Shown piece after piece: positions 4,035-15,192 of a DNA stretch of 59,484 nt. The stretch is from Methylococcaceae bacterium. Lineage in GTDB: Bacteria; Patescibacteriota; Microgenomatia; UBA1400; PJMF01. The stretch is taken from positions 1-59,484 of the forward strand of contig JBILVZ010000004.1 of assembly GCA_044370175.1 (NCBI GenBank). The letters run 5' to 3'. The notes below the pieces were generated by a model. The model made no database searches and was not told the DNA's origin. It was given only the letters and a program-made list of their open reading frames with translations. The first letter of the stretch is position 1; each line of letters begins with the position of its first letter. Both the position numbers and the translations under genes were made by a program.

Positions 4035-4142
4035 TAGTTGTCTGTTTACATTTAGGGTAATACTCTGATCTTTGAAGTTTGTTTCGATATAACTGGCTAG
4101 CGTCCCACATTCGCAGTTGTAATGGTAGAATCATCTGTGAGT

Positions 4143-5141
4143 ATGCATATCACCACACATCTGACAGCCCAAGATTCGATTCGACCACTCACTCCACATG
4201 AACAGCGAGTTACGGAGCGAATCTTTGAGCAGAACGTACACTTCACTCCTCGCGATACCGTTGTCATTGTTACAGATCCTACGATGCACGAGAAAGAAGC
4301 TGCGCTGTGGTTTGAAACGGCAAAAACACTTGGACTACCTGTTGAGCTCTATGTTTTGGCAGGAATGACGCACTCAGGTGAGGAACCACCACAAACTATA
4401 GTTGATTTGGCAGATACAAATTCAATCGTCATTTTCCAAACTGTATATTCACTTACGCACACCAAGGCAGGCAAAAAAGCTATTAGCAACGGTGGGCGCG
4501 GCATTAGCTTGCCTGGTGCTGAGTATGAACTGTTGCTGAGGACGCTGGATATTGATTACGCGCCAGTCCGAGAACTGGGTGAAAAACTCAAAGAAGAACT
4601 TGCAGCCGCACCAAAACTCACCATCACGGCTCAAAATGGAACTCATCTGACCACCCAGATTCGTACAACAGGCATCATCAATGATTCTGGCTTTTTTAAA
4701 CCTGGCGAACTCGGCAACTTACCTGCAGGGGAAGTTTTTTTTGCTCCCCTCCTCGGGACAACCAATGGAACTGTTGTGATTGATGGCTCGATCGCCGACG
4801 ATGTTTTAGATGCCCCAATTACGGTTACGATACAGAACGGTACAGCGGTCGCAATGACAGGTGGTGCTGCAGCCCAAAAACTTTGGGAGAAACTCAACGC
4901 TTATGGCCCAGCTGGCCGCACTGTTGCAGAAGTGGGAATTGGCACCAATCCTGCTGCAAAAATTACTGAAAACTTACTAGAAGCAGAAAAGGCCTATGGC
5001 ACAGTTCATATTGCGTTTGGCAACTCCAGCGCAATTGGTGGTGAAAATGAGGTACCCATTCACATTGATGGACTGATCGCACAACCAAAGGTGAAAACAC
5101 CAACAGATCTGCTCTTGGAGAATCACCTATTCAATCTCTAA
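4143..5141 (+). CDS. Aminopeptidase (peptidase M29 / thermophilic metalloprotease family)
   Basis: GNLPAGEVFFAP, VAEVGIGTNP, EAEKAYGTVHIAFGNS, HIDG. Confidence 0.88.
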   Translation: MHITTHLTAQDSIRPLTPHEQRVTERIFEQNVHFTPRDTVVIVTDPTMHEKEAALWFETAKTLGLPVELYVLAGMTHSGEEPPQTIVDLADTNSIVIFQTVYSLTHTKAGKKAISNGGRGISLPGAEYELLLRTLDIDYAPVRELGEKLKEELAAAPKLTITAQNGTHLTTQIRTTGIINDSGFFKPGELGNLPAGEVFFAPLLGTTNGTVVIDGSIADDVLDAPITVTIQNGTAVAMTGGAAAQKLWEKLNAYGPAGRTVAEVGIGTNPAAKITENLLEAEKAYGTVHIAFGNSSAIGGENEVPIHIDGLIAQPKVKTPTDLLLENHLFNL

Positions 5142-5160
5142 TGTAGCGTGTACTACTCCA

Positions 5161-5169
5161 TGCTATACT
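5161..5169 (+). promoter_or_regulatory. Extended -10 promoter (TGcTATACT) for the his leader/hisS transcript
   Basis: TGnTATACT ends 6 nt before the leader ATG at 5176. Confidence 0.65.
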
Positions 5170-5175
5170 ACAGCT

Positions 5176-5226
5176 ATGACACAACCATTTGTCATCACTA
5201 CGCATCATCACCATACGCTCGCTTGA
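5176..5226 (+). CDS. Histidine leader peptide MTQPFVITTHHHHTLA
   Basis: 16-codon ORF with four consecutive His codons (5203-5214) directly upstream of hisS and an attenuator; below the ORF-track size cutoff. Confidence 0.85.
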   Translation: MTQPFVITTHHHHTLA

Positions 5227-5260
5227 GGGGTGATCTGTAGTGCCTAAACCGTAATTACAC

Positions 5261-5284
5261 TCCCCGCCTCAAGCGGGATTTTTT
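5261..5284 (+). terminator. Attenuator terminator upstream of hisS
   Basis: CCCGC-ctcaa-GCGGG hairpin followed by ATTTTTT; overlaps CCTCAAGCG (5267-5275), which is complementary to CGCTTGAGG (5220-5228). Confidence 0.8.
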
Positions 5285-5320
5285 GTAGTAAATTAAGTTA
5301 CAAATATGAAAGAAAACTAT

Positions 5321-6568
5321 ATGCAAAACACACCAGTACAAACACTCAAAGGTTTTAGAGATTTTTTGCCAGAAGAAAAGCGTAAACGTGACTACGTCAT
5401 CGCCAAGATGAAAGCGGTCTATGAGCGGTTTGGATTTGAGCCCATCGAAACACCAACCCTCGAATACGCAGATCTCCTCCTTGGTAAATATGGCGACGAA
5501 GCAGACAAACTCGTCTACAACTTCAAAGATCGTGGTGATCGCGCTATCGCCTTGCGCTATGACCAGACTGTGCCCACCGCACGTATTCTCTATCAATACC
5601 AAAGTGAGCTTCCCCGCTACTTCCGCCGCTATCAAATTCAAAACGTTTTTCGCGCCGACAAGCCACAAAAGGGTCGCTATCGTGAGTTTACGCAAAGTGA
5701 CTGTGACATTTTTGCCAGCACCGACCCACTCGCCGATGCAGAAATTTTGGCTGTTTTTTATACCGTTTATTTTGAATTAGGGCTGAAAAACATCACTATT
5801 GAGATCAATGATCGTGAGACACTGCTATCCTTCCTTTCGCCATTTGCCACAACCGAAACTTCAGTACTATCCCTGACACAAAGTGTCGATAAACTGGACA
5901 AGCAAACACCAGCAGAAGTCGCAGCCGAACTAGTCACAAAAGGTCTGACTAGAGAAGCAGCAGAAAGACTTTTAAGCGAACTGCAAAAAGTCCAACCATC
6001 AGCGCAATTACAAAAAATTGTAGACAAAGCAAAACTCCTCGGTGTACCAGCGACAGCACTCAAATTTAACCCAAACCTAGCTCGAGGCCTGGATTACTAT
6101 ACTGGCCTAATTTTTGAAAGCCGCCTACCCGAATACCCAACAGGCTCCTTAGGTGGTGGTGGTCGCTACGACAACCTCATCAATCAACTTTCTGGCTACC
6201 AAATGCCAGCCGTCGGCTTTGCCGTTGGTTTTGATCGCACCGTCGAAGTGGCTGATGCACTCGGGCTGCTCCCTGCAGAAAGTCTCGGTTCACAAGTGCT
6301 CGTGACTATTTTTGACGAGCAGTTTGCGCCACAGTCACTCGCCCTTGCTACAGAGCTGCGGGCTGCAGGCATTAAAACCGAGGTCTACCCTGCCCTCGAC
6401 AAACTGGGCAAACAGTTCAAACTGGCTGACCAAAAAAAGATTCCCTATGTTGCGATTGTGGGTGAAGATGAAGTAGCTAAAAATGTGGTTTTACTCAAAA
6501 ATATGCAAACGGGCGAACAGACAGCTGTGGCAGTAGACAAGGTTCTAGCGTTTTTTAAGCAAAGCTAG
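5321..6568 (+). CDS. hisS: Histidine--tRNA ligase
   Basis: KGFRDFLP, LRYDQTVPTAR, RADKPQKGRYREFTQ, LARGLDYYTG, GGGRYD; alternative start 5306. Confidence 0.97.
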   Translation: MQNTPVQTLKGFRDFLPEEKRKRDYVIAKMKAVYERFGFEPIETPTLEYADLLLGKYGDEADKLVYNFKDRGDRAIALRYDQTVPTARILYQYQSELPRYFRRYQIQNVFRADKPQKGRYREFTQSDCDIFASTDPLADAEILAVFYTVYFELGLKNITIEINDRETLLSFLSPFATTETSVLSLTQSVDKLDKQTPAEVAAELVTKGLTREAAERLLSELQKVQPSAQLQKIVDKAKLLGVPATALKFNPNLARGLDYYTGLIFESRLPEYPTGSLGGGGRYDNLINQLSGYQMPAVGFAVGFDRTVEVADALGLLPAESLGSQVLVTIFDEQFAPQSLALATELRAAGIKTEVYPALDKLGKQFKLADQKKIPYVAIVGEDEVAKNVVLLKNMQTGEQTAVAVDKVLAFFKQS

Positions 6569-8600: not shown

Positions 8601-9557
8601 ATGTCCAACCCGTACCAGTCACTCATTGATCAATTGACCATTAAGATTCAGGAAACTGAAGTTTTGGCAAATGATCCTGAGATGGCAAGTCTCGTCCAAG
8701 AGGAACTGCTACAACTCCAAGAACAAAAAGCACAACTTGAGGCTGCAGCTGCACAGATGACGGCACATGCAGAAGTGAGTGATACCGAAACTGGCAAAAA
8801 AGGCAACTGTATCGTCGAAATTCGTGGTGGTGCTGGAGGTGATGAAGCCAAGATCTGGGCGCATGATTTATTGCGCATGTATATTCGCTTTGCAGAAAAT
8901 AACAAATTAAAGATGGAAACTATTGATGACACCATCATTAAGTTTTTTGGGAAAGTTGAGTTTGCAGGTGAAGTTTTGACTGCCTATGAGCTGCTGCAGT
9001 TTGAATCGGGAGTCCACCGAGTACAACGAGTCCCTGCCACCGAGGCACAAGGTAGAATTCATACCTCCACTGCTAGTGTAGCAGTTTTGCCTGAAGTTCC
9101 TCCTGCAGCAATCAGTATTCGTGAAGAAGATCTTGAATGGGCGTTTATGCGTGCTGGTGGTGCTGGTGGGCAAAACGTCAATAAAGTTAACTCAGCGGTT
9201 CGCCTCACCCATCTTCCCTCTGGGATTGTTGTCAACGCCCGCCAGGAAAAAAAACAAGATCAGAATCGAAAAATTGCGCTTGAATTGCTGCGCGCACAAC
9301 TCTGGGAGATAGAAGAAGAAAAAAAGGCAAAAGCTGAAGGTGAAGCTCGCAGTATGATCGGTCGTGCACAGCGTGCAGAGAAGATCCGCACCTACAACTA
9401 CCCTCAGAATCGAGTTACAGATCACCGCACTAAACAATCCTGGTTTAGTTTAGAAACAATCATGGAAGGCAGTATTGCCGACATGGTGTTGGAGTTGCGC
9501 GCTGCACTCACCAACCCTGACTATGTCCCTGGGCAATCAGACGATGAGGTCGAATAA
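8601..9557 (+). CDS. prfA: Peptide chain release factor 1 (short N-terminus)
   Basis: [14 protein letters not shown] (PAT specificity motif), [22 protein letters not shown]. Confidence 0.96.
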
Positions 9558-9565
9558 AGTACCAG

Positions 9566-10768
9566 CTACTGCTGGGCAGCCCGGAGTGTGACTGACTTTT
9601 CAAGACTTTCACCATCTCTCCAGTAGGTAATAGTGATTGTTTCACCCACCTTTTTCTTGTTTATAATTTCAGCCAAGTTTAGTGTTTCAGTGAGTTGCTG
9701 ACCATCTATCTTAGTTAAGATATCACCTTCTTGAATGCCCGCATTTTCAGCTGATGAACCAGCGATTACTTCTTGAATATACGCACCTTGTGGTACTTCA
9801 TTGGCCAGTGCTGCTTCACGACTGATCAGGCGATAGCGCACCCCAAAGAATGGACGATCAAACTGTCCTGTTTCATTAAAGTTACGAACTGACTCTTTAA
9901 TAACATTGATCGGCAAGGCAAAACCAACATTTTGTGCATTTGCAGATACCGCAACATTCACCCCGATCACCTCACCATTTGCATTGAGGAGCGGTCCGCC
10001 AGAGTTGCCAGGATTGATGGCTGCATCGGTCTGAATGACGTTTTCCAGCTCTTCGGTACCAGCTCGCCCCCCAAAGGCAGTGATTCCTCGCCCCAAACCT
10101 GAGATCACCCCAGTCGTCACTGTGTGGCGAAACTCCCCGAGCGCTGTCCCAATCGCAATTACGCCCTCGCCCACTCTAATTTTGTCGGAATCGCCCAACT
10201 GGAGTGCAGAAAGACTCGATCCATCAATCTTGAGGATCGCCATGTCCGTGCTTGGATCACGATAGATATTTTTGACTTCATACTCTTTGTTTTCTTTATC
10301 AATGATTTTGTACTGTGCTGTTGGGTCACTCACCACATGTTTATTGGTCACAATTAAGCCACTGCCATCCACCACAAAGCCAGTGCCTATATCTTGTTGG
10401 ATTTCTTTTATTTCTGGAGCTTGCTGATTGAAGTTAAAACCAAAAAAGCCTTGGAATGGATCCTGGATAACTTGTTGGCGTGTTTTTATGGCTACCGTCA
10501 CTACCGACTCAGAAGCCACTTCTGCTACATCAGCAACCGAGATATTCCCCCCAGCTTGCAGCAGGCTACCCAGTTTAGAGCTAGGATTACTGATAGAATT
10601 GGTAGCGGCAGCACCTGAGCTTCTGGCTGCAAAGTAATCAATGGGCTTGACGACAAAAACTCGATCTGCCCAAGCGCCAGCAAAGAAGGAAAGTAATACA
10701 ACTGCAGAGATACTTGCCCCGATTACAAAGCCTCTGCGTGTATTTTGAGAAGTAGTTTCGTCTTTCAT
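9566..10768 (-). CDS. htrA: HtrA/DegP-like trypsin serine protease with one PDZ domain
   Basis: N-terminal TM helix, TNKHVV, IQTDAAINPGNSGGPL, C-terminal PDZ. Confidence 0.94.
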   Translation of the reverse strand: MKDETTSQNTRRGFVIGASISAVVLLSFFAGAWADRVFVVKPIDYFAARSSGAAATNSISNPSSKLGSLLQAGGNISVADVAEVASESVVTVAIKTRQQVIQDPFQGFFGFNFNQQAPEIKEIQQDIGTGFVVDGSGLIVTNKHVVSDPTAQYKIIDKENKEYEVKNIYRDPSTDMAILKIDGSSLSALQLGDSDKIRVGEGVIAIGTALGEFRHTVTTGVISGLGRGITAFGGRAGTEELENVIQTDAAINPGNSGGPLLNANGEVIGVNVAVSANAQNVGFALPINVIKESVRNFNETGQFDRPFFGVRYRLISREAALANEVPQGAYIQEVIAGSSAENAGIQEGDILTKIDGQQLTETLNLAEIINKKKVGETITITYWRDGESLEKSVTLRAAQQ

Positions 10769-14313: not shown

Positions 14314-15192
14314 TTATACGCCAACCACTGCATCAAACTGGGCACTGGGCACAAACATAGGATTCAGCCAAAACTGCGCACTGTCCTTTTGGCCTGGTTG
14401 CCAGTCGGTGAGCACCATCCGTCGAGTCAAAACGTCTGCTCCAATCAAGTTTCTGTACGCCGTGATAACGGTCTGCTGGGTGCGTTCTTGATTGCCACTT
14501 CTGCGAGGCAGACTTGCGAGCATTTGCTCAAGTAGTTCATCGGTAGTACGCACGCCCTTGCCGGCTAGATCATCTTGGCTGGCCTGGTGGAGTGCACTGA
14601 CTAGTGCCACGACATCTCCTCCGACAGTCTTTGCCGCCCTGCGTCCCCCCACTCCAAGGCTATAGTAGCTTTGATTGTAGTCAGTGCGCGCTTCTTGTTC
14701 TAGGTGAAATGCATAGGGCAGATAAAAGGGTAGCTCAGTGTGCACTCTGGCTTCTAAAAGACTTTTTTTGCCACGCTGCCCTTCTGCAATAACGACATCG
14801 AGCCGTAGACGACCTGCTAGTGGCTCTGCCAGGGAACTGGCTGCTAAAAAACCCTGCATGTCTTGCAGCAATGCTGCTGCATTGCGTGGGAAGGCGTGGT
14901 TTTGCAATCTTGTAGCTACAACGGGCAGTTTTGTGATCTCGCTGTATATTTGAGCAAGATCATTTTGTGAATGGCGAGTAGCTGTCAAGAGATAACGCAA
15001 AAGATGGCAGTAGTAGCTGGTACTTTCGCTGAATGCTATCAATTCTTGGCATTGGCCGTTTTGCTGTAAAAAAAGCTTCAGGTTGGGGATATCAAAGATC
15101 AAGGTATCGCCACTAAAGGGAGGCGCGAGCTTTTCTTGAGCTGCTTGTGTAGTGCTGTACTCGACTGGCCGGACTCCTTTTTCGTGATGCAT
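14314..15192 (-). CDS. Hypothetical protein
   Basis: About 292-aa ORF; start uncertain; no motif. Confidence 0.6.
   Translation of the reverse strand: MHHEKGVRPVEYSTTQAAQEKLAPPFSGDTLIFDIPNLKLFLQQNGQCQELIAFSESTSYYCHLLRYLLTATRHSQNDLAQIYSEITKLPVVATRLQNHAFPRNAAALLQDMQGFLAASSLAEPLAGRLRLDVVIAEGQRGKKSLLEARVHTELPFYLPYAFHLEQEARTDYNQSYYSLGVGGRRAAKTVGGDVVALVSALHQASQDDLAGKGVRTTDELLEQMLASLPRRSGNQERTQQTVITAYRNLIGADVLTRRMVLTDWQPGQKDSAQFWLNPMFVPSAQFDAVVGV

Follow-up and report, generated by a model that had tools for sequence, protein, structure and literature searches.

We found that the gap upstream of hisS in the window (the whole stretch of DNA analysed, 59,484 nucleotides) carries an element that is very probably, at a rough probability of 0.85, a four-region ribosome-mediated transcription attenuator tuning hisS to the supply of charged tRNA-His. 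A short ORF with four His codons precedes hisS, a predicted intrinsic terminator (5263-5284) lies between this ORF and the gene, and an antiterminator helix (5227-5241 with 5254-5265) would capture the terminator's 5' arm. Given the position of the stop codon, a ribosome that has reached it would mask the antiterminator strand; this geometry is found in 42 of 53 related loci, and masked-ribosome folding, a crude method, is consistent with it. We infer the histidine response, the direction of regulation, the transcription start and the ribosome footprints; most likely, to judge from the DNA, the cell makes more synthetase when charged tRNA-His runs low. Ribosome-mediated attenuation of hisS at His codons had been proposed in an earlier note on this DNA, and the proposal is supported by the conservation of the element and by the covariation of both its terminator and its antiterminator.

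The hisS leader and its predicted leaderless start

The gene behind the leader is a true hisS, present in a single copy in the genome: it scored 395.6 bits with the NCBIfam model TIGR00442 (cut-off 286.75), and the hisZ models stayed below their own cut-offs. Its start is most likely the ATG at 5321 rather than the in-frame ATG at 5306, because the alignments of relatives begin there, which leaves 36 nt between the U-tract of the leader terminator and the hisS start codon. The leader occupies the 179-nt gap between hisS and the gene of an M29-family peptidase upstream. The positions of all features are collected in Table 1.

The earlier note had described an extended -10 box followed after 6 nt by an ORF with four His codons, and all of these elements lie where it had placed them. 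The ORF, MTQPFVITTHHHHTLA, has its four consecutive His codons at 5203-5214, and its ATG (5176) follows the end of the -10 box by 6 nt. With so short a distance, the leader mRNA is predicted to be leaderless or nearly so, the transcription start being placed from the position of the box. Among 53 related leaders, 49 have a TAnnnT box 6-10 nt 5' of the leader ATG, compared with 95 of 867 other ATG triplets (11%), and 19 of these 49 boxes carry the TG extension. Motifs resembling a Shine-Dalgarno (SD) sequence precede 6 of 49 leader ATGs as against 30 of 51 hisS ATGs at the same loci. The claim that the leader is itself leaderless is thus well matched by the relatives.

The first 20 bases of the leader mRNA (5176-5195) could fold back into a small hairpin (AUGACA with UGUCAU) that takes in the start codon and might influence leaderless initiation. 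Two relatives (L002 and L004) are able to fold the same start-codon hairpin.

Table 1. Features of the hisS leader, its neighbours and related elements. Positions without a prefix are those of the window; C and L prefixes denote contigs of the window's genome and separately extracted loci.
Feature	Position	Strand	Description and basis
Upstream gene, M29-family peptidase	4122-5141	+	Pfam Peptidase_M29; outside the element
Extended -10 promoter box	5161-5169	+	TGcTATACT (TGnTATACT); sequence
Leader ORF	5176-5226	+	16 codons plus stop TGA 5224-5226; sequence
Region 1	5196-5215	+	Thr-Thr-His4 codons; predicted to pair with 5224-5242 if no ribosome is present; fold of 5176-5253
Leader-end segment	5218-5228	+	last codons and stop; predicted to pair with 5267-5277 (terminator loop and 3' arm); -16.4 kcal/mol, z -5.3
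Region 2	5227-5242	+	G-run 1 nt past the leader stop; complementary to the His codons and to region 3
Region 3	5254-5267	+	predicted to pair with region 2 (antiterminator) or region 4 (terminator 5' arm 5263-5267)
Intrinsic terminator (predicted)	5263-5284	+	5-bp GC stem, 5-nt loop, A, U6; sequence, fold -9.2 kcal/mol
hisS, histidine--tRNA ligase	5321-6568	+	Pfam tRNA-synt_His 5.6e-42, HGTP_anticodon; NCBIfam TIGR00442
Candidate leuS leader	C26, upstream of L212:1-2448	-	14-codon leaderless ORF, four Leu in a row, 76 nt before leuS
Candidate trpS leader	C17, upstream of L211:1-1080	-	16-codon leaderless ORF with Trp-Trp, about 80 nt before trpS
Repeat of about 87 nt, window's genome (G000)	C48:15072-15155, 14842-14928; C42:10200-10286, 9125-9212; C29:10946-11037		
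Repeat of about 87 nt, relatives	L002:1351-1436; L003:2796-2881 (-); L004:2755-2842 (-)		

Alternative folds of the window's leader

The GC hairpin with a U-tract that the earlier note had pointed out is present as the sole terminator-like site of the intergenic region; its stem pairs CCCGC (5263-5267) with GCGGG (5273-5277) and is followed by an A and six T in the DNA (5279-5284). The leader stretch as a whole folds better than 200 of 200 shuffled versions (z -3.2). Folding of the alternative structures gave -9.2 kcal/mol for the terminator, -10.4 kcal/mol for the antiterminator formed by regions 2 and 3 (fold of 5227-5267) and -30.0 kcal/mol for a long hairpin. The antiterminator pairs 5227-5241 with 5254-5265 and uses C5262-C5265. 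In the window its duplex is unremarkable against shuffles (-11.8 kcal/mol, z -1.3), and the duplex of regions 1 and 2 reaches -16.2 kcal/mol (z -3.0).

Folded as naked RNA, the window's leader has two nearly equal structures, the long hairpin (-30.0 kcal/mol) and the combination of the 1:2 helix with the short terminator (-28.5 kcal/mol). The long hairpin joins 5218-5243 to 5254-5277, stacking a helix of 5218-5228 with 5267-5277 on the 2:3 helix. In both naked folds, G5273-G5277 is part of a stem that ends one base short of the U-tract.

The leader recurs upstream of hisS in relatives

We read the DNA upstream of 130 hisS copies; 121 of these belong to the window's family and the remaining 9 to other families within its order. 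Stretches of at least 250 nt were available for 125 of them (116 from the family, 9 from the others), with one genome flagged as unpublished left out. A stretch was counted as positive if it held a short ORF with at least two adjacent His codons that ended 15-110 nt before a terminator-like hairpin. Such a hairpin was present in 64 of the 125 stretches, and 53 of the 125 were positive, 52 of them among the 116 family stretches and 1 among the 9 from elsewhere in the order. The reverse complement of these stretches, used as a control, had 26 terminator-like sites, none of them preceded by a His-His ORF. His was also by far the commonest doublet in ORFs of this kind (53 loci), followed by Leu (24 loci). 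The His run is therefore conserved in relatives, and the comparison of the 53 positives among 125 stretches with 0 of 26 on the reverse complement excludes, at the level of sequence comparison, a chance origin of the leader.

Mapped by hand, the positives are spread over 17 genera of the family, with one other family represented as well. In an even sample of the other families of the phylum, the element was found at none of 28 hisS loci. A covariance model (R2) built from six copies of the genus recovered the leaders and added one locus with three spaced His codons (L135); it gave no full-length match in 19 leader-less stretches offered alongside. Judging from its absence from more than half of the family's hisS genes, the element is dispensable. 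The run comprises two His codons at 16 loci, three at 29 and four at 8, and in the 53 leaders it typically stands three codons ahead of the stop. Outside the run and the next two or three codons the leader peptide is poorly conserved, and the U-tract is nearly invariant among the related leaders.

One locus of a leader-bearing genus (L189, genome G079) has a -10 box that almost directly abuts the terminator and lacks the His ORF. It is an apparent deletion variant, in which constitutive termination would be expected unless something else intervenes.

The upstream neighbour of the leader varies. At four loci (L006, L015, L021 and L023) the leader sits behind a tRNA gene instead of the peptidase gene, and at two others (L007 and L014) the peptidase gene abuts hisS and there is no leader. 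For both reasons the element, as read from gene order, belongs to hisS and not to the neighbour gene. The same observations bear on an interpretation by coincidence, according to which the hairpin is the terminator of the peptidase gene, hisS has a promoter of its own and the His ORF arose by chance. The hairpin does lie 122 nt past the peptidase stop codon, and no two-hexamer promoter turned up there in a simple scan; against this, the His ORF, the -10 box and the terminator accompany hisS behind upstream genes of different kinds, no positive came from the reverse-complement control, the antiterminator covaries (see below), and the stretch between U-tract and hisS measures only about 36 nt and holds no -10-like box of comparable quality. 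We regard this coincidence as extremely improbable.

Terminator and antiterminator covary

The structure work used the 53 loci chosen by the rule of a His-His ORF plus terminator. Compared side by side, the leaders show four regions: the His codons and their neighbours (1), a G-rich stretch directly after the stop that is complementary to His codons (GUGAUG-like) and to region 3 (2), the C-rich 5' arm of the terminator plus the bases ahead of it (3), and the 3' arm, which the U-tract follows (4). Because two of the alignments, A6 and A7, had each been fitted to the very helix scored in them, and because their sequences are kin, the following shuffle figures are upper bounds of support: in A6 (59 matches) the terminator helix was paired in 93% of cases compared with 69.5% in shuffles, with compensatory changes at 7 of 7 pairs and a covariation score of 0.445 against 0.136 (none of 500 shuffles as high, slid controls 0.04-0.10); in A7 (38 matches) the antiterminator helix of regions 2 and 3 was paired in 83.3% compared with 62.9%, with compensatory changes at 8 of 8 pairs and a score of 0.501 against 0.197 (none of 500 shuffles as high, slid controls 0.06-0.20). 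An independent, anchor-based count of the 2:3 helix gave 81% pairing as against 64% when the partners were dealt among loci, a level reached in 0 of 1000 trials, and comprised 39 distinct sequence combinations among the 53 loci. Both helices upstream of hisS, the terminator and the antiterminator, thus covary.

At single loci, the 2:3 duplex was matched by at most 5 of 200 shuffles in 31 of the 53 cases, and the 1:2 duplex in 11 of 53, which is moderate support for the latter. The geometry is shared too: in 42 of 53 loci, the pairing of region 2 starts 1-8 nt away from where the stop codon begins, and in 37 of 53 the 2:3 helix extends to the end of the terminator 5' arm. Swapping whole partner segments across loci discriminated weakly (-13.7 kcal/mol with a locus's own partner and -11.4 kcal/mol with a foreign one), since G-runs and C-runs are common to all loci.

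Some analyses were not informative for reasons of alignment. The register of two MAFFT alignments (A2 and A4) was too poor for counting structures column by column; on A4, RNAalifold returned no structure and a pair-frequency search gave only G:T artefacts, and we discarded both outcomes. Counting the 2:3 helix on the terminator-fitted A6 failed through one-base register shifts, so the model was refitted to the 2:3 helix.

A second helix between the leader end and the terminator

The earlier note had built its switch on another helix. It described two mutually exclusive folds in which stalling at the His codons would free 5220-5228 to pair with 5267-5275 and thereby block the terminator. The complementarity itself stands: CGCTTGAGG (5220-5228) is the exact reverse complement of CCTCAAGCG (5267-5275), the helix grows to 11 pairs with C5218 and U5219, none of 200 shuffles was as good as its -16.4 kcal/mol, and it excludes the short hairpin. 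Moreover, the nearest relative (L002) keeps a weaker version in which, by eye, both sides have changed, and L006 also has one (-15.4 kcal/mol).

The part of the claim that did not hold is the conserved role as antiterminator. Across relatives, on an alignment that was not fitted to this helix, pairing was 52.8% in the real and 52.8% in the shuffled sequences, with a covariation score of 0.114 against 0.111, and the helix was strong against shuffles in only 5 of 53 loci. It reaches the terminator loop in the window, L002 and L006, and could be confined to part of the genus. The end of the leader and the 3' arm are bound to show some complementarity, because regions 1 and 3 both complement region 2. 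The geometry points the same way: the helix keeps the 3' arm paired up to G5277, one base before the U-tract, and together with the 2:3 helix has the shape of a long terminator. Since it ends flush with the U-tract, the helix of 5218-5228 with 5267-5277 probably acts, in the folding model, as a form of the terminator and not as an antiterminator; this reading follows the accepted geometry of intrinsic terminators. Nor would a His stall be expected to free 5220-5228, as a ribosome of the usual footprint would, when positioned at the third or fourth His codon, extend over about 5218-5227. That 5220-5228 serves as the antiterminator strand is in our view unlikely, and we prefer the covarying helix of regions 2 and 3 in this role.

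A model of hisS attenuation

In the model with the 2:3 antiterminator, transcription would begin at or next to the leader ATG (5176), and ribosomes would load on the leaderless 5' end. With plentiful His-tRNA, the ribosome would reach the stop codon (5224-5226) and cover the G-run of region 2 (5227-5242); with region 2 covered, 5263-5267 would pair with 5273-5277 and RNA polymerase would terminate at the U-tract (5279-5284). With scarce His-tRNA, the ribosome would stall at 5203-5214, covering region 1 and the last leader codons and leaving region 2 free. Region 2 would then pair with 5254-5265 and occupy three of the five bases of the terminator 5' arm, and with the terminator disabled hisS would be transcribed. 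If no ribosome translates the leader, the 1:2 helix plus short terminator would compete with the long hairpin (5218-5243 with 5254-5277), and both ribosome-free folds should terminate, each having a stem flush with the U-tract.

We sampled structures while holding unpaired the bases that a ribosome would mask, from -15 to +12 around the A-site codon. Across the 53 loci, the median pairing of the terminator 3' arm was 0.67 for naked RNA, 0.30 with the ribosome at the first His codon, 0.59 at the last His codon and 0.66 at the stop. For the window's own leader, the probability that the final four 3'-arm bases are paired was 0.90 in naked RNA, 0.93 with a stall at the first His codon, 0.29 at the fourth and 0.98 at the stop. 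The 3' arm of the window is thus predicted to be released only with stalls at later His codons, and many relatives show the reverse, with release at the first His codon and not at the last. As it rests on equilibrium folding with an assumed footprint, the masked sampling supports a switch only in outline.

The element might also act mainly in some other way, as a small RNA or peptide with its own function or through control of hisS translation. A terminated leader RNA would be about 109 nt long, and attenuator RNAs and leader peptides of rhizobial trpL with functions in trans have been described; yet the peptide is poorly conserved beyond the His run and the two or three codons that follow, the start region of hisS takes part in no conserved helix that we saw, and the U-tract is nearly invariant. 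We consider such a different main action very unlikely and retain transcription attenuation as our reading.

Probable histidine auxotrophy and candidate leaders of other synthetase genes

The earlier note had supposed a likely His auxotroph, and the genome agrees: families of hisD, hisA/F and hisG gave 0 matches in the assembly, which is 99% complete, and each of them was found in 14 of 14 control genomes. Histidine auxotrophy is therefore likely as judged from gene content, and with hisD, hisA/F and hisG not found, hisS would be a natural target for histidine sensing. Among the matches listed, 20 sequencing runs contain DNA of the window, all of them DNA from lake or freshwater metagenomes; none was an RNA run.

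We scanned the whole 1.22-Mb assembly for a -10 box, an ATG, a short ORF and a terminator before a long ORF. The scan returned 12 candidates, three of which have runs of cognate codons, those of hisS, leuS and trpS. The leuS leader has a G-run after its stop, a terminator made of a C-run and a G-run, and a U-tract; the trpS leader has a possible antiterminator, a CCCGC/GCGGG terminator and U7. All three leaders share the same build, with a G-run past the stop and a C-run/G-run terminator. Pfam and NCBIfam models identified both genes (944 bits with leuS_bact of NCBIfam, 276 bits with NCBIfam trpS). Candidates before a SpoIID-like gene, a prepilin peptidase gene, alaS and two unnamed ORFs were set aside as they lack a cognate codon run, and a His-rich short ORF on contig C12 was dropped, lying inside a 3867-codon frame on the other strand.

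Upstream of thrS by about 210 nt (C42 about 10000-10125, L219:100-225) we saw six consecutive Thr codons, an antiterminator-like G-run and a terminator. This frame offers no ATG, GTG or TTG from the preceding stop up to the Thr run, and a CTG stands 8 nt after a TGTATAAT box; the Thr run may belong to a leader that either starts unusually or has decayed. The other synthetase genes checked in the same genome showed no such leader, and in a scan of Rfam no family explained the leaders of leuS, trpS, ileS or thrS.

A structured repeat of about 87 nt was seen in the window's genome and in relatives. Its parts are a stem interrupted by tandem G-A mismatches, a variable hairpin and another hairpin of GGCAG/CUGCC; among five copies, covariation was seen at 3 of 11 predicted pairs, and the repeat has no Rfam match. 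Four genomes of the genus hold 5, 7, 9 and 11 copies, often as divergent pairs and intergenic, and the repeat occurs almost nowhere else among 61 genomes searched. In three relatives a copy is inserted between the His terminator and hisS. We rejected the stretch as a synthetase-linked RNA motif, this being a multi-copy interspersed repeat that looks like a small (MITE- or REP-like) element.

A wider proposal can be made only tentatively, and we think it possible rather than probable: in the window's genus the extra helix would add a second tier to the switch, and leaderless attenuators of the His, Leu, Trp and perhaps Thr synthetase genes would together form the main starvation sensor. If the second tier exists, only stalls at later His codons would lead to read-through, and an untranslated or early-stalled leader would still terminate. 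If the sensor exists, it would replace T-boxes and the control of biosynthetic operons in auxotrophic, reduced genomes.

Relation to known attenuators

To our knowledge, Patescibacteria (CPR) have tiny genomes with few recognised regulators and no amino-acid synthesis, and little has been described of their nutrient sensing. A covarying His attenuator with Leu and Trp counterparts suggests that tRNA charging is monitored and synthetase supply adjusted by a device that needs no protein. The element of about 110 nt is testable in vitro without growing the uncultured organism, and its more than 50 natural variants offer material for studying the coupling of leaderless translation to transcription. 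The literature within our reach, with most subscription journals outside the search, yielded no description of a hisS leader attenuator in Patescibacteria.

A scan of positions 4900-5600 against Rfam gave no match to His_leader (RF00514), even at E values up to 10, and no T-box match; Trp_leader alone matched, at 16.7 bits compared with a gathering score of 41. Seven related loci likewise had no T-box match at the gathering score, and no Rfam family explained the related loci. By its sequence the hisS leader is an analogue of RF00514 and not a member.

Leader-peptide attenuation is textbook knowledge from trpL and hisL. Like hisL of E. coli and Salmonella, the window's leader combines a short ORF with a His run and alternative terminator and antiterminator folds, and charged tRNA-His would be sensed through the position of the ribosome. 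In hisL the consecutive His codons number seven, a ribosome-binding site is present, and the genes controlled are those of histidine biosynthesis, whereas the window's leader precedes a synthetase gene in a genome that seems to lack such genes. A leader-peptide attenuator on a synthetase gene is known from pheM-pheST of E. coli, in which, as proposed here, the gene is attenuated via codons of the cognate amino acid; pheM-pheST differs in amino acid and lineage, and the pheM leader has a normal ribosome-binding site. The T-box of hisS in Firmicutes acts on the same gene, responds to uncharged versus charged tRNA-His and works on a terminator and antiterminator; in contrast to the window's leader, it binds the tRNA directly and needs no translation.

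Two further systems come close in single respects. In bacilli, a computational study predicts a His leader peptide before the hisS paralogue hisS* and before hisZ (Naville and Gautheret 2010, PMC2965389). These leaders share with ours a short ORF of His codons, an attenuator in front of a gene of the hisS family and their status as computational predictions, a likeness judged from the description given there; they differ in that their targets are the paralogue and hisZ, the main hisS of bacilli carrying a T-box, while the target here is the single true hisS (PMC2965389). In mycobacteria, leaderless short ORFs encoding polycysteine are described as cysteine-responsive attenuators (bioRxiv 10.1101/834739). 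They resemble the hisS leader in placing the sensing ORF at the 5' end of the mRNA with no ribosome-binding site, and differ in responding to cysteine, in having operonic targets that are not synthetases, and in belonging to Actinobacteria (10.1101/834739). The principle of the hisS leader is a known one; what makes it of interest is the lineage, together with the set of synthetase leaders to which it belongs.
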